A stretch of DNA of 12,339 nt from Candidatus Thorarchaeota archaeon (GTDB lineage: Archaea; Asgardarchaeota; Thorarchaeia; Thorarchaeales; Thorarchaeaceae), in assembly GCA_029858305.1 (NCBI GenBank), contig JAOUFI010000066.1, forward strand, positions 1-12,339. The letters run 5' to 3'. Under the pieces are notes generated by a model that worked only from the letters and a program-made list of their open reading frames with translations, made no database searches and had not been told where the DNA came from. Shown one piece after another: positions 1,713 to 11,903 of this stretch. Position numbers and translations under genes: made by a program. Numbering within the stretch: position 1 is the stretch's first letter; each line of letters opens with the position of its first letter.

Positions 1713-3065
1713 TTGAAGAGGCAAGATGTTATTGTAGTTGGTGCTGGTTCCGCTGGTTGTGTCACGGCTCGACGTTGTGCGGAATTAGGTCTTCATACAC
1801 TTCTCCTAGATAGGAAGCCAAAGAATGAAGTCGGACAGAAAGTATGTGGCGATGAAATAAGCAAGTCTCACTTTGAAGCGACTGGTATAAACATACCTTC
1901 TGACAATGAAATCTCTTCAGTCATTGATGGAGCTGATGTTTATCCACCAAATTTGATGAATGAATTGAAAGTTCGAGATTGGTCAGACTTCGATGGTTGG
2001 ACTGTTGATCGATTGGCTTTTGGTCAGAGATTACTCAATGAGGCCATCAAGGCTGGTGTCAAATTTCTACCGAATATTCATGTAGCAGAACCTACTCTTA
2101 TTGGAGATCAAGTTACAGGAGTACATTATAGAGATTTATCAACTCGAGAAGAAACCACGGCTAAAAGCAAACTTGTAATCGATGCGAGTGGTTTTGCAGC
2201 GGTAATCAGAAATAAGTTGGATAGTCCATTAATTGAAAAAAACATCGACAAAAGCGACGTGGCATTATGTTACAGAGAGATATTGACACTCAAGGTTCCT
2301 CTAGCAGAACCTCAAGTCGCCCGCGTTTTTCTGGGAGGCAAGATAGCACCCCAGGGATATGCTTGGATTTTTCCTAAGGGAGTTAAGGAAGTAAATGCTG
2401 GTGTCGGTATTACTGGCGGTAGTGGAAAAGGCTCACCAAAATCATATTTTGAAACATTCAAGGCGAGCTATCCCCTTCTCTTCAAGAGTACAACTATAGA
2501 TGGGAAAGGTGGTGCAGTCCCAGTCAGAAGACCGCTGAAGAGTCTAGTGGGGAACGGTGTTGCATTCGTTGGAGATGCCGCCTTGCAGGTGAATCCGATC
2601 CATGGAGGAGGCATCGGAGCCGGGATAAGGGCTGGAGTCATTCTAGGTGAAGTAGCACGAGAAGCTATTGCACGACGAGATTTGACGGCAAAAGGGCTAT
2701 GGACATATAATACACGTTATCTGCCTGATTTTGGTAATAGACTAGCATCGCTGGAGATATTCCGGAGACTACTCCAGGGTGTGAACGATGAAGATTTGGA
2801 TTTCGGATTTGAAAAACGTCTACTTGAGGCAGAGGATCTAATGTCTGCAAACAGAGGAGAGGGACTCTCTCTTGGAATTGCTGATAAAATGAAGAGAGTA
2901 AGAAGAGGCGCGGGACGTATATCTCTTCTTCTCAAGCTTCAGAAAGCGACCTCACTGATGAAGAAGATAAGTAAAGAATACACTGCCTATCCTTCCGATC
3001 CTAGCGGCTTAGATACTTGGGAAAGACATGTTTTAAACATCATAGAAGATGCGAATTTCGAATAG
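1713..3065 (+). CDS. Geranylgeranyl reductase family FAD-dependent oxidoreductase (digeranylgeranylglycerophospholipid reductase-like)
   Basis: Rossmann motif DVIVVGAGSAG, KVCGD (Cys motif), VIDASG, GYAWIFPKG (YxWxFP), VGDAA and NPIHGGGI. Confidence 0.9.
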   Translation: MKRQDVIVVGAGSAGCVTARRCAELGLHTLLLDRKPKNEVGQKVCGDEISKSHFEATGINIPSDNEISSVIDGADVYPPNLMNELKVRDWSDFDGWTVDRLAFGQRLLNEAIKAGVKFLPNIHVAEPTLIGDQVTGVHYRDLSTREETTAKSKLVIDASGFAAVIRNKLDSPLIEKNIDKSDVALCYREILTLKVPLAEPQVARVFLGGKIAPQGYAWIFPKGVKEVNAGVGITGGSGKGSPKSYFETFKASYPLLFKSTTIDGKGGAVPVRRPLKSLVGNGVAFVGDAALQVNPIHGGGIGAGIRAGVILGEVAREAIARRDLTAKGLWTYNTRYLPDFGNRLASLEIFRRLLQGVNDEDLDFGFEKRLLEAEDLMSANRGEGLSLGIADKMKRVRRGAGRISLLLKLQKATSLMKKISKEYTAYPSDPSGLDTWERHVLNIIEDANFE

Positions 3066-3111: not shown

Positions 3112-4164
3112 TTATACGTCGCGAATTCCTTCTTTCACCACAGTGAAGACAGCCTCACCCTCTGGGAGATTAGGAGAGTCTACCAACCTACAGATTCTAC
3201 GTTCACCTTTTGATTTTCTTAGGTAACATCGTGTTTGCGGTACATGAGCCAATACATGACCACCAACGGGAGCTGTTGGATCGCCAAAGAATGCATCCGG
3301 TCGAGACATGACTTGGTTTGTAATATATACAGCCATGTTGTTAATCTCAGCACCTCTCTGTAAATGATGGAGGTGTTTGTTTAGTTTCTGTTGTCTTGCT
3401 GCAAGAGTACCTCTGCCTGTGTATTCAGCACGAAAATGACTTGTAACAGAATCAACGACTAACAGTTTAGCATTAGTATCAGGCGCCATCTCCATTGCTT
3501 GATCGCATAGGAGAATCTGATGGTCTGAATTATAGGCTCGCGCCCAAACAATACCCTTGAGAACTTTGGCAACGTCCATACCCAGAGCTTCAGCCATATC
3601 TACAAGCCGCTCAGGACGGAATGTTCCCTCAGTATCAACATAGATGGCTGTTGCGTTCAGACCTCCCAAACCAGGTGGTCGTTGGACCATAACAGCCAAT
3701 TGGTGAGCCATTTGAGTCTTCCCGGATCTAAAGGAACCATACATTTCAGTAATAGATTGTGTTTCAATACCGCCACCAAACATCTCGTCTAAAGCCTTAG
3801 AACCGGTCGATATTCGGCCAGCAATCTTACGCCTCTCGAGTAGTATATCTGCGGTCTCAAAACCAATATCTAGCATTTCGCGAGCTGCCTTGATAATTTT
3901 GGTAGCTGTTGTTTCGCCAATTGAGCCCGCTGCCGCCAATTCGCCAGGAGTAGCAACAGCAATGGCCTCGACACTTTTGTATCCTGACTCAGCAAGCCTC
4001 TTTCCTATCGCAGGACCGACACCAGGTAAATCGGTGACGTCAATACCTGCAACTGAATCACTATCTATCTCTAGGACATCCTCGGATTTACTTTCTTCAT
4101 CTTCAAATTGCTCGTAATCTTCCAAATCCTCTGCATCTTCGACATCTGTCTTCTTTGGTGACAC
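3112..4164 (-). CDS. radA: DNA repair and recombination protein RadA (Rad51/Dmc1 family)
   Basis: HhH N-terminal domain (DLPGVGP..GY.SVE), FxxA polymerisation motif (GFETA), Walker [21 protein letters not shown], Walker B LLVVDS, TNQV and GGHVLAH. Start moved from 4212 to the GTG at 4164 because a strong SD (GGGAGGT, 4172-4178 minus) sits 7 nt upstream; 350 aa. Confidence 0.97.
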
Positions 4165-4232
4165 TATGAAGACCTCCCTCAGATGCTTGTTGTTGCATCT
4201 GCTCGTGGACATGATGTAATCGATTCATAGAG

Positions 4233-4294: not shown

Positions 4295-4603
4295 TCATAC
4301 CTTTGTTAATGTAACTAGAATGAACTCCTCTTGAGGTGCGATTCTGATACCACCCATATTTGTTTGAATTTGGATGAAAGACAATTCACCACCCTCTTTA
4401 ACGCCTTTTACGATTTCCAAGGTCTTGCCAATTAGGGAACTTAGCAGAGCTGATATTTCCTCAGCTCGTTCTAATGAAACACCCCAAGTATTGATTGGAA
4501 ATCCCTCTGGACTGATAAAGAGTGCTGCATATACATCAGGAAACTTGCTTGTGATGTTTTGGATTATTCTCTCGAAAATCTCTCGCTTTGGCATAGCTGG
4601 CAT
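4295..4603 (-). CDS. Roadblock/LC7 (MglB/LAMTOR2-like) domain protein
   Basis: ~102 aa with the family pattern: helix, DVYAALFISPEGFPI, helix EISALLSSLIG, GELSFIQIQTNMGGIRIAP..EFILVTLT. Likely start is the ATG at 4603 (AGGATGTG 7 nt upstream) or 4594, rather than 4663. Confidence 0.85.
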   Translation of the reverse strand: MPAMPKREIFERIIQNITSKFPDVYAALFISPEGFPINTWGVSLERAEEISALLSSLIGKTLEIVKGVKEGGELSFIQIQTNMGGIRIAPQEEFILVTLTKV

Positions 4604-4797
4604 TATTTCGCACATCCTAGCGGAATCTATGGTTCTCTTAGAGAAAAACGTGACAGATGACAAAGAAAAGGTTTGTTGTCATATGTTCCACCTTTCTGAG
4701 TCGTGCTGAAAGAAAAGGAAAAGCTTGATGAGAACTAAATTTTAATGGAAAAGATGAAAAGTCAAGCATTTGGGGGCACAATAGGAGATTTGCTAAC

Positions 4798-5421
4798 TTG
4801 AAGTATGGGGATGAAATCATTGATCTTCATGGTACAAATGTCACTATAGCTCGTTTTATCTCCAGAGTGACTCCTGCACCACTAATCAACCTCTATGTAG
4901 GAAGTATTTTTGCATGGTTTTCTCCAATTGGTCTTGGTCCCGTGCTTGCACCAGTGGGTACGCTTCTGTTATGCATAATTCTTATGGTCATAATGCCAAT
5001 CACACCCATTATCTATGAAGCTGCAAAAGGTAACATCGATCTTGATGTGTCTCAGAGAAAGAGTAGAACTAAATTCCTTCTCTTTTCGCTCTTCTGCTAT
5101 TCACTTAGTTTTGTTGTTTATACTCTCTTTGGATGCATAATCATGAGTTCACTTGCTGCAGCATACTTTACTGTGTCACTAGGCGTGACCGTGGTGAATT
5201 TAAAATCCAAGGTGTCAGTACATGGTGCAGGTGTCGGTGGTCCAGGGACCGCGTTAATTCTCGTGTTTGGAATATTCGCATTACCCGTTGTTCTTATCTG
5301 GATAGCAGTCATTTGGGCAAGAGTTGTTCTACAACAACATTCTATGGCCCAATCAATTGCAGGGGTTCTTTTGGGTGCGTTCATTACAGCTATGACTTAT
5401 CCTTTTGTTTACATCTATTAA
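4798..5421 (+). CDS. PAP2-superfamily-like integral membrane protein (putative lipid phosphatase)
   Basis: About 6 hydrophobic helices. KVSVHGAG is C2-like (SxH) and WARVVLQQHSMAQSIAG is C3-like (RxxxxxHxxxQ). AGGAG (4783-4787) lies 10 nt before the TTG start. Confidence 0.7.
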   Translation: MKYGDEIIDLHGTNVTIARFISRVTPAPLINLYVGSIFAWFSPIGLGPVLAPVGTLLLCIILMVIMPITPIIYEAAKGNIDLDVSQRKSRTKFLLFSLFCYSLSFVVYTLFGCIIMSSLAAAYFTVSLGVTVVNLKSKVSVHGAGVGGPGTALILVFGIFALPVVLIWIAVIWARVVLQQHSMAQSIAGVLLGAFITAMTYPFVYIY

Positions 5422-5532
5422 GCATGAGCAGATGATAAGTACGAAAAGCGTTCTTATGGAAACCCGAGAGAGGTAAGATATATTCCTGATGAATTTGCAT
5501 CAATAGAAGTAGAACTTGAAGTGATTCGTCTA

Positions 5533-6741
5533 ATGTCAGATCAGATTGCCTGTCCCGAATGCGGTAATAAAATGAGGAAGGGTTCGACCTTCTGCATTAA
5601 TTGCGGAAATAAGATACCAGAAGATATCCTACCGGAGCAGACATTGGAGGAGGAACAAATACTCGGCGAGGAAGAGGATGTTCTACCAGCTGTTGAAGAA
5701 TCAGGATTAGACGAGGTAATTCACGCTGAACCTGCAGCTGAACCGATACTTCATGAATCCAAAACCACAGAGCCTTCAGATATGCTCAGCTGGGATGAAG
5801 GACTTCCAAATACGCCTGAAGCTAATAAGACTCTCGAAAATGAAGTGGAAATGCCCGTTGATGTTTCAATTAAATCAGAAATAGAAACTCCAAGTACCGC
5901 AGACACTAGTGAGCTTTCGTGGGAAGAAGGCGTAGCGGGTATTAAAGAAGGCATGCCCTTCAAAGAGATCGAGCCACCAAGAGTCTTTGCTGAGGCGCAT
6001 GATGCAAAAGTCACAACTGATGACGCCTTGGAACACCTTTTCCCAGAAGTTAAGGATGATGCAACTAGGGATGCTGTGGCACATCTATTTCCTGAGGGAA
6101 GAGGTAGTACAAGTGCAAGTTTTATCGATGTCGTTGTTGGGAAACCAGAGAGAATCTCAATCAAGTCTCCTTTACATGAGCTAGAAACACCAGTTTGCTT
6201 AAGTTGTGGAACCATCCCAACATCAGACAGTTTTGAATATCCAGAATATGTCTTTGATGCGTTAGGCAAAGCGCGGGTTGAAAATGGGGAAAGATTACTG
6301 CAAGAAAATGAGCATGAAGCTGCAATTGAGAATTTCGAGATGGCTAAAATGCTATTCGAAAAATCTGGAAATGAGAAGAATCTTGCAGAGGCAATAAAGA
6401 GAATTGATCTTGGATACGATGATATGGCAAAGTTTCACTATGACCAGGCAGAAACTCATTTGAAAGAAAATGAATTTGAATGGGCTGTTGTTCAATTCAA
6501 AAAAGCACGGGAGCTCTATATGTTCACAACTGATACAAAGAAACGGGTTAAATGCGCTGAAAGAGCTCGTGATACCTTCATTGTTTGGGGAAAATTTCTA
6601 GAAGATGAAGGAGACCGACTAGCTAAGGCTGGAGAAACAAGGGAGGCGTTAGCTAAGTATCAGGAATCTGCTGCCAAGTATCGCGAAGGCCAAGACACTA
6701 AGAAATTGAGGGGTCTTGACAGAAAGATACGAAAAGCCTGA
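5533..6741 (+). CDS. Zinc-ribbon protein with acidic disordered linker and C-terminal TPR/MIT-like helical repeats
   Basis: N-terminal CPECG-x9-CINCG zinc ribbon, ~190-aa E/P/D-rich linker, lone CLSC, then three 54-aa helical repeats. ATG 5533 preferred over GTG 5521 (GAAGTGA SD-like at 5518-5524). Confidence 0.8.
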   Translation: MSDQIACPECGNKMRKGSTFCINCGNKIPEDILPEQTLEEEQILGEEEDVLPAVEESGLDEVIHAEPAAEPILHESKTTEPSDMLSWDEGLPNTPEANKTLENEVEMPVDVSIKSEIETPSTADTSELSWEEGVAGIKEGMPFKEIEPPRVFAEAHDAKVTTDDALEHLFPEVKDDATRDAVAHLFPEGRGSTSASFIDVVVGKPERISIKSPLHELETPVCLSCGTIPTSDSFEYPEYVFDALGKARVENGERLLQENEHEAAIENFEMAKMLFEKSGNEKNLAEAIKRIDLGYDDMAKFHYDQAETHLKENEFEWAVVQFKKARELYMFTTDTKKRVKCAERARDTFIVWGKFLEDEGDRLAKAGETREALAKYQESAAKYREGQDTKKLRGLDRKIRKA

Positions 6742-6753
6742 TGTGTATCGTTT

Positions 6754-7668
6754 CTATTTGGGTTTGAATCCGGTCAAACGCAATATATTCTCGCGAAAGA
6801 TGAGATTTATGTCGTTGTCACTGTAACATAATTGAGGGCATATTGAGCGCACCGCATTGTATTGCTCCTCGAGAATATTGTATCTGAATCCTCTTGGAAA
6901 GAAGGAAGAGTCAGTTCCAAACACTACTCTACAGGCAGATCCAGCCTTGAGGGCTTTCTCAAAGATCTTAGTAATAGTTAGATCATATGGTTGATAGATC
7001 ATCCAACTGTTGCTCCCACTAGTGTCCATCACGACATTGTGGGTTTGGTACATCAACATAAGTACTTCACGGAAAAAACCTGCGCCAAAATGTGCAATCA
7101 TGAAATTGAGGTCAGGAAAGTCTTGTGCTGGTTTTTGTATGTCAAGAGGATTTCCATACCTAAGATTGGCAGTAGCTCCAATGGTAATTCCAAAATGGAG
7201 GATTACCAGAAGTTTCTGTCGTAGCGCTTCTTCATAGATTGGATACAATTTTTCATCATAAGCATTATAGTTCCCAGAGCTTGGGTATAGCTTAATTCCT
7301 TGGAAACCATCTTTGCCTGCTCGCTTAACAAGGTCAACAGCATCATCAGATGCAGGATCGATATTCGCATAACCCATAAATCGACCAGGAAACCTCTTTC
7401 TGGTCTGGTTAAAATCATCCCAGACCTCAGAACTTATCATCATCCCTATTGCAGAGATACCATATTTGTCAAGCTCATCCATCCACATCTGACCAGCGTC
7501 CCAATTCTCATCGGGGATAGTAAGAGTACCCATGTCAGTATTGTGAGCCACTCGTTGTTGGATTCGATTTAAGGAAGCACCACTATCAAGCCAACGCTTA
7601 ATCGTTTGAAACGTAAAGTAGTGAGCGTGGGCATCCACTACATCTATACCTATCTTAGAAATGACCAT
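6754..7668 (-). CDS. Amidohydrolase family (TIM-barrel metal-dependent hydrolase, Amidohydro_2-like)
   Basis: VVDAHAH (HxH), GFQGIKLYP, ILHFG, IAHFGAG, MDTS and VFGTDS motifs. ATG at 7668 has GGAG 9 nt upstream; the alternative start is GTG 7683. Confidence 0.88.
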   Translation of the reverse strand: MVISKIGIDVVDAHAHYFTFQTIKRWLDSGASLNRIQQRVAHNTDMGTLTIPDENWDAGQMWMDELDKYGISAIGMMISSEVWDDFNQTRKRFPGRFMGYANIDPASDDAVDLVKRAGKDGFQGIKLYPSSGNYNAYDEKLYPIYEEALRQKLLVILHFGITIGATANLRYGNPLDIQKPAQDFPDLNFMIAHFGAGFFREVLMLMYQTHNVVMDTSGSNSWMIYQPYDLTITKIFEKALKAGSACRVVFGTDSSFFPRGFRYNILEEQYNAVRSICPQLCYSDNDINLIFRENILRLTGFKPK

Positions 7669-7752
7669 TATGATATTCTCCACTAGTTCTGAGATGCAAT
7701 TATCTCTTGACTACTGGGAGTATTAGTAATAAGAGCTCAGTTATGGTCATAA

Positions 7753-9888
7753 TTAGATCCAATCGCCAGTGTTAAGCTTTCTCGGTAGATACTCATCAGT
7801 AAGATACTGGAACGAGTGGCTAGCAAATGCCTGTATCTCTGCCTTCTCCTTCATTTTGAGCATCAACTGGAGATCCTCTACCCATGGCTTGTTCTGTTGC
7901 ACAAATGGCTCTTTCAGCATATCCTTGACACGCTTAACGTCAGCAGGTGTCATTGGGATTCTAACGGCTTTCGGAATCTTGTATTCGTCTAGATCCCTGG
8001 TTAAGACTCCAAGCAGTTTGAGTTCAGGAGTGGCGATGAAAGGTGACTCATAACTGAGCCTCTTGCTTCCTCTTAGGAACACTGAATAAATATAGTGTCC
8101 GTATGGGTCGGAGTCAACCAGAGCAAATGCTGGGATCTCTAGCTCTTTCACTAGCATCTTTAGAAATGCCCTTGTGGCAATATCACCTGAGCCTTTCCCT
8201 GTGATGACAATGCACGGTTGACGATTCCAGTACTTCGCCTCTGCTAACCTCATGACAGCGGCATCCTTCTCTGAGAGAAGGATGAATTCGGCATCACTTT
8301 CAACGATTTCTAGCTGGTCAAGGAATGGAGTAACAGCCCAACCACCAGTACCCATCTTTGTGAGATCAATTAGGTCTCCACCATCTCGTATTGTGACTCT
8401 ACCCATCGCTGAGCCACGTGCAGAGGCAACGATATGAACGCTATCACGAGTTGTCTGTAGCATAGAGGCTACGTCTTCGACAATCTTGTCGCTATACTTC
8501 TGATCTCTGAAGAGGTTCACATCGCTATAATAGACCTCTCTTTTTGTTGCATGCAAATTGGCTTTTAGTAGATTGTAGACAATCTCCATGACTCGAGCTG
8601 TTCGTGTCGCATCGACTACTGAGGCCAGGGAATGATAAGGACGCGAAATTGTTCGCATACCAAGGAGGAGTAAATCACGTACTTCATCCCAAACTATGTT
8701 ATCTCCAGATCGGCTTGGAATCTCAAACGCTGGTCTACCAGTCGTCATAGTTTCATTGAGAATATCCAGAGCAGCTTCAACCAGTCGCTCAGTTGTATCA
8801 TCAGCCGTTAGATTGATGACCTCGACCGTTTCAGCTGGTCCTTCAGCACCTTCTACTTTCGGTTCTTTAGCCCTTTCCTCGGCTGCAATCCAGTTTTGCT
8901 TCATCTCAGCAGCAAGCTTGACAATTGCTGGAGAAACTTTCAGATTAGACTTCTTTTTCACTGGCTTTGGTTTCTTCTTGGGAGGTGCAGCAGCTTTTTT
9001 GGGTGGTTTCTTTACAGGAGCTTCCACCTTTTTCTCCTTCTTCTTGGAAGGTTTTCTCTTAGCTTTCTTTATTGGCTCTGTAGAAGGTTCCACGGGAGTT
9101 TCTTTCTCCTTTGTATCTGTCTTTGTATCTACTTTTTTCGCAGCAATGACCGTTGATGGTTCACCAATAACTCTCTCAATCTCCTGATCACGTTCAATTT
9201 CCTTTGCAGAATCAACTAACTTTGTGGCGCTCGCTATACTAAGTCCATCTACCTTCGCTGCTACAGCATCAGGTCGAGACCGTGAAAGACGGGCTACTGA
9301 GGTGTATCCAGCTCTCTCAAGAGACAGAGCTAGTTTTGCACCCACACCCGGAATGTCAGTCAGCTTAAGCATAGGTTGCATAATCTCATCTGCGATTTCT
9401 TCATCCTGAGGTATCTCTTCCTTGGGTTCACTTTCTGACTTAATTTTTCGAAGCAGATCCTTCGCAGCAGCAGTTAGATTACTAGCTCCTACTTTGCTCA
9501 AACCATCAACTCTCTTTGAAATTGCGTCAGGTCGCGCACGAGAGAGCTGCTCCACGGAAATGTAACCAGCTGCGATGAGCTTTTGTGCAAGTTTTGGACC
9601 AACTCCTGGAAGTGTCTGTAATGGAATCTCCGAGGAGGCATCTGACATTGGCGAAGTTTCTATTTTGGGTTTAGGTTTTTCTGACGACTTTGCCTTGCTC
9701 GGTTTAGTATCTTTTTTGGGAGTCTTTCTCTTCTTAGGAGATGATTTTGCTTTTTTCGTAAGTTTTGATTCATCCTTCTTCTTGGGAGCGGGTTTCTTCT
9801 TTGGTTCTGATTTGACTAGCTCTCCAAGAGTTTCCTGGATGATTTCAGGCTTTTTCTTTGATTTCTTTTTTTCACTCAAGAATATCAA
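7753..9888 (-). CDS. top6A: DNA topoisomerase VI subunit A (Spo11 family) with long N-terminal extension (2x HhH domain plus Lys-rich tracts)
   Basis: C-terminal ~355 aa has 5Y-CAP TKREVYY (presumed catalytic Tyr454, 8527-8529), TOPRIM SEKDAA, ITGKG, LVDSDPYG (DxD) and KAEIQA. It overlaps or abuts top6B. Start is TTG 9888, or TTG 9879 (GGGGGTTGA SD-like upstream). Confidence 0.96.
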   Translation of the reverse strand: MIFLSEKKKSKKKPEIIQETLGELVKSEPKKKPAPKKKDESKLTKKAKSSPKKRKTPKKDTKPSKAKSSEKPKPKIETSPMSDASSEIPLQTLPGVGPKLAQKLIAAGYISVEQLSRARPDAISKRVDGLSKVGASNLTAAAKDLLRKIKSESEPKEEIPQDEEIADEIMQPMLKLTDIPGVGAKLALSLERAGYTSVARLSRSRPDAVAAKVDGLSIASATKLVDSAKEIERDQEIERVIGEPSTVIAAKKVDTKTDTKEKETPVEPSTEPIKKAKRKPSKKKEKKVEAPVKKPPKKAAAPPKKKPKPVKKKSNLKVSPAIVKLAAEMKQNWIAAEERAKEPKVEGAEGPAETVEVINLTADDTTERLVEAALDILNETMTTGRPAFEIPSRSGDNIVWDEVRDLLLLGMRTISRPYHSLASVVDATRTARVMEIVYNLLKANLHATKREVYYSDVNLFRDQKYSDKIVEDVASMLQTTRDSVHIVASARGSAMGRVTIRDGGDLIDLTKMGTGGWAVTPFLDQLEIVESDAEFILLSEKDAAVMRLAEAKYWNRQPCIVITGKGSGDIATRAFLKMLVKELEIPAFALVDSDPYGHYIYSVFLRGSKRLSYESPFIATPELKLLGVLTRDLDEYKIPKAVRIPMTPADVKRVKDMLKEPFVQQNKPWVEDLQLMLKMKEKAEIQAFASHSFQYLTDEYLPRKLNTGDWI

Positions 9889-11903
9889 CCCCCAATATCA
9901 TTGAAATCCATATCATCCGAGCTAGGATCTGCAATGAGCTCAGCTTCCTCAGTTTCTGCTTCAGACTCTTCGTCTTCTTCTGATGTTTCAAATCCTGAAA
10001 TTGAATCACGAATCCGGCTAGCTATTGTTTCGGCATCAAAGAGAGATTTCTTCTTTGCATCATTTGCAATAAATACCAGACTCTCAGCAAATTGATCAGC
10101 ATACATAGCTAGGATACCGGCTCGCTTTGCCTTACGACGGTCGGTTTCTCTTCTTGTAATGAAGCGTCGGAATTTCCGTCCAGCATCCTCAAGAGCAAGT
10201 TTGATTTCGCGGAGAAGCACCTCATCTTCTGCGAGAGCTTGCTTTGATTGACCTTTAAACATGACATGTACATAAGCTCCGCAAACATGGATGAAGACCA
10301 TTATCGGCCCACGAGGTATTCCATTATCGAAAGTTTGAACCTTGTAATTCCTCCAATTCACGAGTGTTGAGGCTTTCCATGTAGCACAGTCACTGTTATC
10401 CCTGAGTTTGGGCACCCTATTAACGAAACGCCATAACACCATAGGAGCTGAGGTCGCAGGCTTGATCTCGCCACCATATGCAATACATACCTCAATGGCA
10501 AATGAGAGGCCTTTCCCTGATGTGGGCTTCCTAGTTACAGCTGCTGTGAAGTCCGGTTTGTAAGCAAGTTGAATAGTTTGCTCAAAGATTTCTTCTCCTA
10601 CTGTAACAACAGTATCTGTAGGTGGAGCAATATAATCCTCATTTGAGAAGGCTCGGTAGAGTAACTCCACTTCAGTTTTTGAAAGAGAATCTGCTGGTGT
10701 CTGAAGTGTGATTGGTTCCAGATGTCGTCTACGAAGTTCCTTACTAGCTTCATTAACAATATTCTTCGCCTTATTCGGGCTAAGCCGGCAGAAGGCTTTT
10801 GTCAGGAATCCACGGAGATCTGACTCTGGAGTTTCTCTCAATAAATCCTGAAACTCACCGATTCTAATACTAGCAGGATGAGGTTGAGCATATTTGGGTT
10901 CATCAGGGAAGACAGATACTCTGCGCGGAAATATACGAACCTCTCCATATGGGTCGATGAAGATTATTGTAACATGTGAATTCAGGAGAGATGCCATCTC
11001 TGCGTAAATATCAGAGTATCCTCGGCGATATTGGATATTCAAATAGTATAACCTGATGTAAGTACCGTGGTTGAATGGCAAATCCATATCAATTGGACCG
11101 CCCACATAATCCTTAGTGTTTGCAGTTGTTGTATAGAAACTACTGACTGTAGCGGAATCTGATGTGAAACGTTTGGTAATTGAGAATATAGGCTTACCAG
11201 TTGTGTTCTGAGCATCACTGAATGCTGATGGCGCACCAAAGCCTTGACTTCCTCTTGTCTGTCGCAATTTTTCAGATTTGCTTGATGCAAGATACATACC
11301 AAACTTCGCAAGGTCAGCAGGGACCATACCCACACCTGTATCGAAGCACGTGAATTCGTAGACTTTGAACCCTTCTTCATCGTCTATTGGCACCAGGTCA
11401 GGCATCTGAACCTCCGTCAATTGCATGACAACCAAAGGTTCACGTTTGTTGAGAAGAGTTCGTAGAGGTGTCACGAATTTCCGGAATTCAGTAATCCGTT
11501 CCTCAAGGGTTTCTTTCTTTCGTGGAGGTAGCTCTACTTCTTTTCCAGCCCTAATATCTCGTTCAAGTTGCTTACTTAGAGCGATTGTATCAATCTGACC
11601 CTCAGATAGTTTCTTCTTAATTTCCTCAACAACTTCAGGTTCCAGTTGATCAGAGAGACGTGGACGTCGTTTTGTTTTCCACCACCATGACTCAAGGGCA
11701 TCAATGGCATTATCGAGAAATTCAATGGCATACTGAGTATGCTTGTTCAGTCCCGTTTCAAAACCAACCAACTGAGTTCTCTTTCGCATGAATTTTGCGA
11801 TCGTTCCTTGTTTGATGTCACCTGAACTTGTGACTGGATTTGTCATCGGAGTTGCTTTTGGTTTTGATTCATTGTCTGGACTGGAATTTTCATCGGGCCT
11901 CAA
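9885..11903 (-). CDS. top6B: DNA topoisomerase VI subunit B (GHKL ATPase, H2TH and transducer domains)
   Basis: N-box EFLDNAIDA, G1 DTGVGM, lid SSK..RQTRGSQGFG, HGT, transducer RFVNRVP, WRNY (WxxY) and switch-Lys region FKGQSKQALAE. SD GGAGTGA (11910-11916 minus) lies 6 nt before the TTG start. Confidence 0.95.
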   Translation of the reverse strand: MRPDENSSPDNESKPKATPMTNPVTSSGDIKQGTIAKFMRKRTQLVGFETGLNKHTQYAIEFLDNAIDALESWWWKTKRRPRLSDQLEPEVVEEIKKKLSEGQIDTIALSKQLERDIRAGKEVELPPRKKETLEERITEFRKFVTPLRTLLNKREPLVVMQLTEVQMPDLVPIDDEEGFKVYEFTCFDTGVGMVPADLAKFGMYLASSKSEKLRQTRGSQGFGAPSAFSDAQNTTGKPIFSITKRFTSDSATVSSFYTTTANTKDYVGGPIDMDLPFNHGTYIRLYYLNIQYRRGYSDIYAEMASLLNSHVTIIFIDPYGEVRIFPRRVSVFPDEPKYAQPHPASIRIGEFQDLLRETPESDLRGFLTKAFCRLSPNKAKNIVNEASKELRRRHLEPITLQTPADSLSKTEVELLYRAFSNEDYIAPPTDTVVTVGEEIFEQTIQLAYKPDFTAAVTRKPTSGKGLSFAIEVCIAYGGEIKPATSAPMVLWRFVNRVPKLRDNSDCATWKASTLVNWRNYKVQTFDNGIPRGPIMVFIHVCGAYVHVMFKGQSKQALAEDEVLLREIKLALEDAGRKFRRFITRRETDRRKAKRAGILAMYADQFAESLVFIANDAKKKSLFDAETIASRIRDSISGFETSEEDEESEAETEEAELIADPSSDDMDFNDIGG

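Follow-up and report, generated by a model that had tools for sequence, protein, structure and literature searches.

A topoisomerase VI A subunit with a tandem array of helix-hairpin-helix modules at its N-terminus in a family of Thorarchaeal Asgard archaea

Archaeal DNA topoisomerase VI (topo VI) is an A2B2 enzyme of type IIB. The solved chains of its A subunit Top6A, among them those of S. shibatae (2zbk_A), M. mazei (2q2e_A) and M. jannaschii (1d3y_A), are 369-389 amino acids (aa) long. Acting on supercoils, the topo VI of M. mazei, which has no N-terminal arms of the kind described below, works slowly and in a highly distributive manner (PMC8837201). An array of tandem (HhH)2 domains, each consisting of two helix-hairpin-helix (HhH) motifs, has been described as peculiar to a different enzyme, topoisomerase V, where the domains wrap DNA, serve as a processivity factor and, when reduced in number, give less relaxation (PMC9489208). 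Here we analyse the Top6A encoded in a stretch of 12,339 nucleotides from a Candidatus Thorarchaeota archaeon (JAOUFI010000066.1; "the window" denotes this whole stretch), which is contig C74 of a genome of 3.04 Mb that is 89% complete. This Top6A carries two (HhH)2 modules ahead of its catalytic core, and the architecture is shared by the relatives of the organism within one family.

An earlier note, made from the letters of the DNA, had pointed to these modules and likened them to the N-terminal domain of RadA/Rad51. It had offered two explanations, namely added DNA-binding or processivity modules, or mimics of the recombinase that couple DNA breaks to RadA, and had suggested a survey of Top6A architectures and a tree of the HhH copies together with RadA. 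Both were part of the present analysis.

A canonical Top6A core with an (HhH)2 array

The Top6A gene lies on the minus strand (see the table below for all coordinates). Its TTG at 9888 overlaps the stop of Top6B, and both genes form one operon. The gene calls in databases (100% identical; P0004 and P0005) start three codons later with the TTG at 9879, which yields 708 aa and is the more likely start. Pfam detected HHH_5 twice, followed by TP6A_N at aa 428-486 and Toprim at aa 535-705. The TP6A_N match (7.2e-20) represents the 5Y-CAP (winged-helix) domain and includes the motif REVYY at aa 450-454, which we take to hold the catalytic tyrosine. The Toprim domain (TOP6A-Spo11_Toprim, 1.1e-54) has its acidic metal-binding DxD in the motif DSDPYG at 592. 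Every feature of the Top6A/Spo11 family that a sequence can reveal was thus present. The solved Top6A chains aligned with aa 366-711 only (9.6e-59 to 2.8e-34), which bears out the earlier statement that known Top6A proteins are shorter and lack such N-terminal domains. The Thorarchaeal protein has in common with them the core with TP6A_N, Toprim, REVYY and DSDPYG as well as a Top6B gene directly upstream in an overlapping operon. It differs from them by ~350 extra N-terminal residues, which comprise a Lys-rich tail, the two (HhH)2 modules, a Lys-rich linker and an additional helix. The partner expected of a true topoisomerase is in place, as Top6B aligned to the Top6B subunits of M. mazei (7.3e-53) and S. 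shibatae (4.5e-43). In a 2025 survey of Asgard replisome genes the Top6A copy conserved among Asgard archaea was reported to be sister to its eukaryotic counterpart, Top6A/Spo11 (PMC12680538), and the present protein belongs to this copy. Judged by its sequence, it is the A subunit of the housekeeping topo VI of an Asgard archaeon of Thorarchaeota type, and looks like part of a working topoisomerase.

Positions 9196-9621 of the window encode exactly aa 90-231. HHH_5 matched this region as the earlier note had expected (whole-protein E-value 3e-18, 66.5 bits vs. a cut-off of 27), with the best stretch at aa 90-144. The two modules of ~56 aa (aa 90-146 and 176-231) were identical in 30 of 56 positions without a gap; their alignment score of 144 compares to 24.9 ± 5.2 for shuffled sequences, and none of 2000 shuffles reached it. 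In an alignment of 23 two-module regions G19, G51, G103, G105, G137 and L138 were invariant, while L15-P16-G17 and S139 were nearly invariant, with G17 conserved to at least 90%. Lysines K65 and K107, in the numbering of the alignment's first sequence, were also conserved in at least 90%. The linkers in the same alignment were rich in indels and varied in length and sequence. The modules are under selection, the linkers are not.

AlphaFold2 (AF2) applied to the 23-sequence alignment predicted four helices per module with a predicted local distance difference test (pLDDT) of 80-91, and a pLDDT below 50 for the inter-module linker. When this model was compared with the PDB by Foldseek, the module region matched best the tandem AR domains of NusA (7.7e-5, 133 columns). 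DNA-bound topoisomerase V came second and third (147-148 columns), and many N-terminal domains of RadA/Rad51 were found further down (~57 columns, root-mean-square deviation (rmsd) ~1.0 Å, 35% identity to M. voltae RadA). A sequence search of the PDB with the modules retrieved the (HhH)2 repeat 625-679 of topoisomerase V as the best match (2.9e-7), followed by M. voltae RadA (2e-4), the N-terminus of H. marismortui L32e (1.3e-3), Hel308 and NusA. Taken together, the modules are compact helical domains with two HhH motifs and conserved Gly hairpins, and have the (HhH)2 fold common to NusA, topoisomerase V, RadA, the L32e N-terminus and Hel308. As such they would be expected to bind duplex DNA independently of sequence.

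The array is flanked by basic segments. The 89 aa of open frame ahead of the first module contain 31% Lys, and the tail, which includes the motifs SPKK (aa 50) and TPKK (aa 56), has a net charge of +18. SPKK is known as a minor-groove motif of histones. The net charges of the other parts are +5 for module 1, +2 for module 2, +15 for the post-array segment (aa 235-355) and -7 for the core. In most genera of the family the tail ahead of the array consists of 31-43% Lys, and the post-array segment of ~20-28%. A full-length AF2 model of Top6A, which had a mean pLDDT of 48 and a badly modelled core owing to a shallow alignment of 33 close relatives, was used for order and disorder of the N-terminal part only. 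Here the modules reached a pLDDT of 77-85, aa 1-85, 154-171 and 242-315 were without structure, and a helix was predicted at aa 320-340. Asgard and eukaryotic TopoVIA have been reported to possess an extra N-terminal helix (PMC9665070), for which the helix at aa 320-340 may be a candidate.

The joining of array and core is a property of the organisms and not of the assembly. Nearly the whole 711 aa were matched in one frame in 19 of the 24 genomes of the same genus, four of the remaining genomes being cut at contig ends and one being without a match, and 81 of 87 genomes of the order had a match. A 7085-nt DNA contig from another study covered positions 7753-9950 with 38 substitutions and no gaps. 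Furthermore, shorter contigs from two other studies bridged the junctions between module and linker and between linker and core. At least 120 protein relatives were listed from a collection of 5.8 billion proteins (63-100% identity, mostly ~700-750 aa, range 561-756). PF14520, PF04406 and PF21180 occurred together on all 120, and of 121 proteins searched with a hidden Markov model (HMM) of the module, 119 contained two copies and no more; the exceptions were a truncated protein with one module and a protein with a spurious third match. A search with aa 85-235 among shorter proteins yielded two N-terminal fragments only. The extension is therefore neither a separate gene nor a misassembly, both of which the earlier note had named as results that would refute it. 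Contigs of one metatranscriptome library matched the modules at 9226-9390 (1 difference) and 9433-9608 (0 differences); an RNA library can hold DNA, so transcription is not thereby shown.

Within the family (f1) the number of modules varies. Among 31 loci from 15 of the 16 genera, 23 had two modules, one had three, four had four, one had five and two had seven; the sixteenth genus, g18, showed a BLAST match only, at query positions 31-711. In a library of 1.84 billion representatives there were ~3,450 Top6A representatives, of which 150 were listed, and Pfam was run on 20 long ones among these. Among those scanned, two full-length clusters at 50% identity had the architecture, represented by P0124 with 746 aa and four HHH_5 and by P0125 with 950 aa and seven nearly contiguous HHH_5. 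HHH_5 was absent from the other 18, ten of which had inserted intein-type elements and eight had extensions lacking a Pfam domain. A fusion outside the family was thus not found among the 20 long representatives. The ten with intein-type elements (P0141, P0145, P0160, P0173, P0175, P0194, P0208, P0213, P0233 and P0250; 767-947 aa) come from elsewhere and owe their length to the inserted element, which splits Toprim in most cases, and not to additional DNA-binding domains; nine of them contained an intein splicing domain, eight of these together with LAGLIDADG, and P0145 contained LAGLIDADG only.

In a survey of the Asgard phylum 347 of 400 genomes matched, and the family comparisons rest on the 150 rows listed. 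Among these, the matches outside f1 started at query position 248 or later and none extended to the module region; the sole non-f1 match below query position 240 (G025) was an alignment that read through two stops from the Top6B frame. The non-f1 Top6A frames listed were mostly ~395-450 aa long, with one of 603 aa and nine of 1020-1553 aa. The latter looked like Top6B-Top6A fusions. In the two of these loci that were fetched a stop separated Top6B (1130 and 659 aa) from Top6A (395 and 397 aa), so that these two are read-through and no fusions. Top6A of the sister family f2 (G025; L029:3209-4468, plus strand) has 420 aa with an N-terminus of 64 aa that contains 33% Lys and no HhH. Because of this Lys-rich, HhH-less protein the basic tail may predate the insertion of the HhH cassette. 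Thus the survey yielded the fusion across f1, and did not find it outside among the matches listed and the 20 representatives. Since Top6A lacks HhH in the sister family and in the non-f1 Asgard matches listed, we conclude that the array is an innovation at the level of the family that has since expanded and contracted.

Relatives of the module on other proteins

The module HMM was built from 242 segments and searched against all 19,794 six-frame open reading frames (ORFs) of the window's genome. The Top6A modules scored 100.7 and 96.6 bits. The next scores were 71.1 bits for a module on C44 and 54.5 bits for a module on C98, and the N-terminal domains of RadA and of a RadA paralogue on C76 scored 37.6 and 16.7 bits, respectively. 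According to Pfam the ORF on C44 consists of HHH_5, a Lys-rich linker and ribosomal protein L32e, and the ORF on C98 of HHH_5 and Rpb6, i.e. the RNA polymerase subunit Rpo6/RpoK. Both fusions were present in the genus, where most of 24 genomes matched from residue 1, and in five of five other genera tested. Outside the family 16 Asgard genomes were sampled, the sister family among them, and here L32e and Rpo6 matched with their cores only. Like Top6A, the two proteins have the module followed by a Lys-rich linker, and L32e shares the signature LSRAxxDxxxxKVDGLS. They differ from Top6A in the protein that carries the module and in having one module, sometimes two on L32e of relatives, as opposed to two to seven. 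A long N-terminus with an HhH-type fragment on Thorarchaeota Rpo6 was noted in a 2026 paper (PMC13257274).

A fourth carrier was seen in relatives of the organism. It is an MFS-like multi-pass membrane protein of ~540-570 aa with the same HhH module at its C-terminal end, followed by a poly-lysine tail; it could serve as a membrane-to-DNA tether. The module HMM did not find this ORF in the window's own genome at its completeness of 89%. Further frames of the family matched the HhH cassette, namely G092:C61:26304-26669 (2283 aa), G092:C143:11296-11574 (847 aa, 1 TAG), G065:C1:72328-72513 (294 aa) and G089:C8:8327-8578 (210 aa). Therefore the cassette occurs on more proteins than the four identified.

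RadA of the window served as a comparator and is not shown as part of the Top6A feature. Its N-terminal domain shared 17 of 53 and 19 of 56 residues with the two modules, with one gap of one residue, and none of 2000 shuffles reached the scores. This agrees with the almost gap-free alignment described in the earlier note. Module and RadA/Rad51 domain also have the HHH_5 family, the (HhH)2 fold (~1.0 Å over 57 residues) and a first hairpin LPGVG in common. On the other hand, the Top6A modules have a one-residue indel and a different second half (SRxRPDxxxxKVDGLS in the module), and they are followed by neither FxxA nor a RecA-type ATPase core. In agreement with the earlier note, FxxA was absent from aa 1-355 of Top6A, which contain a single Phe (F3), while RadA has FETA. 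A second RadA-like paralogue with an HHH_5 N-terminal domain of its own was observed at G000:C76:8486-9589 on the minus strand.

In a maximum-likelihood (ML) tree of 62 modules a branch with 100/100 support separated 11 domains of RadA and RadA paralogues from 51 modules of Top6A, L32e, Rpo6 and the membrane protein; the order within the 51 modules was not resolved. The Top6A modules thus did not group with the RadA/Rad51 N-terminal domains, neither in the tree nor by their bit scores. As judged from these comparisons, the modules are not derived from RadA, and their nearest relatives in the genome are the modules of L32e and Rpo6. The likeness to the RadA/Rad51 N-terminal domain proposed earlier holds for the fold and the Pfam family, and fails as a specific kinship.

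Possible functions of the array

We consider it probable that the HhH array, with its many lysines, functions as a tether to DNA of any sequence or as a processivity arm. The lineage has attached an (HhH)2 cassette, present here in two copies with disordered Lys-rich flanks, to the N-terminus of Top6A. In the family the cassette has also spread onto L32e, Rpo6 and the MFS-like membrane protein, and on Top6A it has been amplified in tandem to 2 to 7 copies. Each module could grip the phosphate backbone of the duplex through its two conserved Gly hairpins without sequence preference, and the SPKK-like lysine tails could contribute electrostatic affinity. Because Top6A is dimeric, an A2B2 enzyme would possess at least four modules on flexible arms beside the DNA gate. 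Between strand passages these arms might prevent the enzyme from leaving the DNA, or they might assist in holding a second duplex. The outcome would be a higher affinity, salt tolerance and processivity of topo VI, as a tandem (HhH)2 array gives topoisomerase V. A generic function is favoured by the range of unrelated carriers of the cassette, which comprise L32e and Rpo6, both active on or near nucleic acids, as well as a membrane protein. Of the two explanations in the earlier note, these sequence features and the analogy favour added DNA-binding or processivity modules.

A wrapping or processivity role is likened to that of the array in topoisomerase V from Methanopyrus kandleri, a type IC enzyme with 12 (HhH)2 domains. 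Both proteins are topoisomerases with tandem (HhH)2 domains, two in this Top6A and up to seven in its relatives. Yet the catalytic part is not homologous, since type IC and type IIB domains are unrelated. Further differences are that the array is C-terminal in topoisomerase V and N-terminal in Top6A, that the hosts are a hyperthermophilic euryarchaeon and a sediment Asgard archaeon, respectively, and that disordered Lys-rich spacers are prominent in the Thorarchaeal protein. A looser analogy is offered by BIN4 and RHL1, both of which bind DNA. In plants topo VI works with components beyond A2B2, among them these two proteins (PMC7614492). If the Thorarchaeal arms add a DNA-binding function, they do so in cis, while BIN4 and RHL1 are separate polypeptides.

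Several points weigh against a DNA tether. The (HhH)2 domains may instead bind protein or carry apurinic/apyrimidinic (AP)-lyase sites, with which the sequence alone is compatible. AR2 of NusA binds the C-terminal domain of the alpha subunit of RNA polymerase. Three of the 12 (HhH)2 domains of topoisomerase V carry AP-lyase sites (PMC9489208). The acidic inter-module linker (-7) together with the acidic tail of Top6B (see below) could point to auto-inhibition or regulation in place of a simple tether. In addition, gyrase-less archaea outside the family manage with a plain Top6A, which leaves the need for an array unexplained. Finally, the poor full-length AF2 model gives no view of how the modules dock on the core.

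The distribution of the cassette may also be read differently. The HhH and Lys-rich segments might be an address label that co-localizes topo VI, RNA polymerase, the ribosome and the MFS-like protein at the same place, be it on the chromosome, by a common partner or by mutual HhH-HhH contacts, and so couples transcription, translation, topology and the membrane. The same type of module, from one side of the 100/100 split, indeed occurs on all four proteins, the L32e and Rpo6 fusions were restricted to the family in the Asgard genomes tested, and more long frames carry the module (847 and 2283 aa in G092). Furthermore, (HhH)2 domains of XPF-type nucleases dimerize (PMC9489208). Yet a separate tethering of each protein to nucleic acid would yield the same distribution, and a common partner is without evidence. 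L32e of Haloarcula marismortui also has an N-terminal HhH-like stretch (E-value 1.3e-3), so that this fusion is not unique to the lineage. We regard such a label as decidedly unlikely. The wider notion of a portable (HhH)2 and Lys-rich cassette by which core information machines are anchored throughout the lineage to the chromosome and to each other appears unlikely to us as well. If it were true, a relative of the eukaryotic ancestor would use a primitive code for chromatin tethering or co-localization, in which 2-7 copies tune the residence of topo VI on DNA.

One or more modules could have AP- or deoxyribose phosphate (dRP)-lyase activity and make the protein both topoisomerase and repair enzyme. 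Topoisomerase V unites both activities (PMC9489208), its (HhH)2 repeat was the best sequence match in the PDB, and the conserved lysines K65 and K107 would be compatible. Most (HhH)2 domains are plain DNA binders, however, and the occurrence of this module type on L32e, Rpo6 and also a membrane protein makes a lyase unlikely. We regard a repair function as very improbable.

The second explanation of the earlier note was that the modules mimic the N-terminal domain of RadA and recruit RadA or hand over to it, linking breaks of the topo VI/Spo11 type to strand exchange. The shared fold (rmsd ~1.0 Å, 35% identity to M. voltae RadA) and the reported position of this Asgard Top6A next to eukaryotic Top6A/Spo11 (PMC12680538) agree with it, as does the distance between the RadA and Top6A genes, which is ~3.5 kb in the window and 2-8 kb in five of five other genera tested. 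RadA keeps within 2-8 kb of the Top6BA operon across the order, however, also beside the HhH-less Top6A of the sister family, and in two further Asgard genomes the distance is ~440 kb. Hence the synteny arose before the fusion and does not depend on it. The modules are nearer to those of L32e and Rpo6 (71.1 and 54.5 bits) than to RadA (37.6 bits), from which the tree separates them at 100/100, and the FxxA polymerization motif is lacking. There is no recombination logic in placing the module on ribosomal, RNA polymerase and membrane proteins, and with its ATPase partner intact the enzyme looks like a working topoisomerase. A complex prediction for RadA (5-row alignment) and the HhH region (23-row alignment) resulted in a score of 0.00 with controls not folded, and speaks neither for nor against an interaction. 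Module kinship, missing FxxA and independent synteny weaken the coupling to RadA to a degree that we give it hardly any credence.

That two genes were read as one or the contig was misassembled is practically negligible: the choice of start codon (TTG at 9888 or 9879) is the sole formal point and nothing was found in favour, while the frame is continuous here, in 19 of the 24 genomes from the same genus and across the 15 genera examined, is covered by the gap-free contig of another study and has hundreds of database proteins alike.

Gene neighbourhood and biological meaning

The features of the window and the other carriers of the module are collected in Table 1. Compared with its counterpart from M. 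mazei, Top6B contains an insert of ~96 aa (aa 72-167) that separates the N-box helix of the GHKL fold from the G1 box. Its alignment to 2q2e_B consisted of two segments, in which query 31-71 matched chain 14-54 and query 168-605 matched chain 60-486. Because of this insert the Pfam match to the GHKL domain is weak (HATPase_c_3, 1.4e-3) and under the cut-off. The last 50 aa of Top6B form an acidic tail with a net charge of -17, which would lie beside the basic Top6A N-terminus and might be an electrostatic partner or a DNA-mimicking regulator. RadA carries an acidic extension of ~55 aa ahead of its HhH domain. Three genes encoding a Roadblock/LC7-domain protein, a protein without Pfam match and a zinc-ribbon protein lie between RadA and Top6A.

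Table 1. Features of the Top6A locus and further proteins with the HhH module
Feature	Position	Strand	Description
PurA	266-1582	minus	
Geranylgeranyl-reductase-type FAD enzyme	1713-3065	plus	
RadA	3112..4212	minus	366 aa; HHH_5 aa 58-112 (nt 3877-4041), FETA aa 118, Rad51 ATPase core
Roadblock/LC7-domain gene	4295-4663	minus	between RadA and Top6A
207-aa ORF	4798-5421	plus	no Pfam match; between RadA and Top6A
406-aa protein	5521-6741	plus	N-terminal zinc ribbon; between RadA and Top6A
Amidohydrolase	6754-7683	minus	
Top6A gene	7753..9888	minus	711-aa open frame from TTG at 9888, no internal stop
Canonical Top6A/Spo11 core	7756..8793	minus	aa 366-711; TP6A_N/5Y-CAP, Toprim
Predicted helix	8869..8931	minus	aa 320-340, W333 invariant; AF2 pLDDT ~65
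Lys/Pro-rich linker after array	8944..9186	minus	aa 235-315; predicted disordered
(HhH)2 module 2	9187..9372	minus	aa 173-234; hairpin 1 IPGVG, hairpin 2 DGLS; AF2 pLDDT 85-91
Acidic inter-module linker	9373..9444	minus	aa 149-172, net charge -7; length and sequence vary between genera
(HhH)2 module 1	9445..9630	minus	aa 87-148; hairpin 1 LPGVG, hairpin 2 DGLS; AF2 pLDDT 80-83, four helices
Lys-rich N-terminal tail	9631..9888	minus	aa 1-86; predicted disordered (pLDDT <50, no secondary structure)
Top6B	9885..11903	minus	672 aa; GHKL N-box, G1 and G2 motifs by eye; transducer domain (Topo-VIb_trans 3.3e-40)
L32e with N-terminal HHH_5	G000:C44:32939-33832	plus	298 aa (L051)
Rpo6 with N-terminal HHH_5 and Lys-rich linker	G000:C98:32642-33304	minus	221 aa (L052)
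MFS-like protein with HhH	L033:1837-3501	minus	also L036, L037, L038 (G001, G017, G003, G002)

A GyrA-type PF00521 was found in one of 41 genomes of the family, and this genome has 7% contamination. Hence the family appears to be without gyrase, which leaves type IIB enzymes as the sole type II topoisomerases detected in it. Two more Top6A/Spo11 paralogues were present in the genome at C140:5722-6741 (plus strand; 358-aa frame, 30% identity) and C156:22068-22721 (plus strand; 383-aa frame, 28% identity within the Toprim region). Their presence is in line with a report of second Top6A copies in Asgard archaea and of third ones in Thorarchaeia (PMC12680538).

A published description of an HhH-extended Top6A was not found in the literature searched. 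The one paper retrieved that combines both subjects is a review in which HhH refers to topoisomerase V. The available parts of PMC8185306, PMC9348778, PMC13257274, PMC12680538, PMC11894792, PMC9489208, PMC8837201, PMC7614492, PMC9665070 and PMC11302465 do not mention such an extension, and the term "helix-hairpin" is absent from the main text of PMC12680538; the supplements of PMC12680538 and PMC9665070 could mention it. In databases the proteins have generic names, i.e. "helix-hairpin-helix domain-containing protein", "meiotic recombination protein SPO11" or "Type 2 DNA topoisomerase 6 subunit A". The novelty claimed by the earlier note is thus retained with respect to a published description, and not with respect to the architecture, which is common in the family and present in public databases. 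HhH-Top6A is a second, independent topoisomerase with a tandem (HhH)2 array. It amounts to an accretion of domains in one lineage, and its likely function is not surprising.

Canonical topo VI is slow and distributive. With their 2-7 modules the natural arms constitute a ready series in which the influence of tethering on a type IIB enzyme can be followed, from relaxation and decatenation to processivity. With respect to the origin of the coupling between meiotic breaks and their repair, nothing follows from HhH-Top6A on the present evidence. The reported kinship of this Top6A with eukaryotic Top6A/Spo11, together with the occurrence of the cassette on L32e, Rpo6 and a membrane protein, points to a strategy of the lineage for anchoring core machines to nucleic acid.

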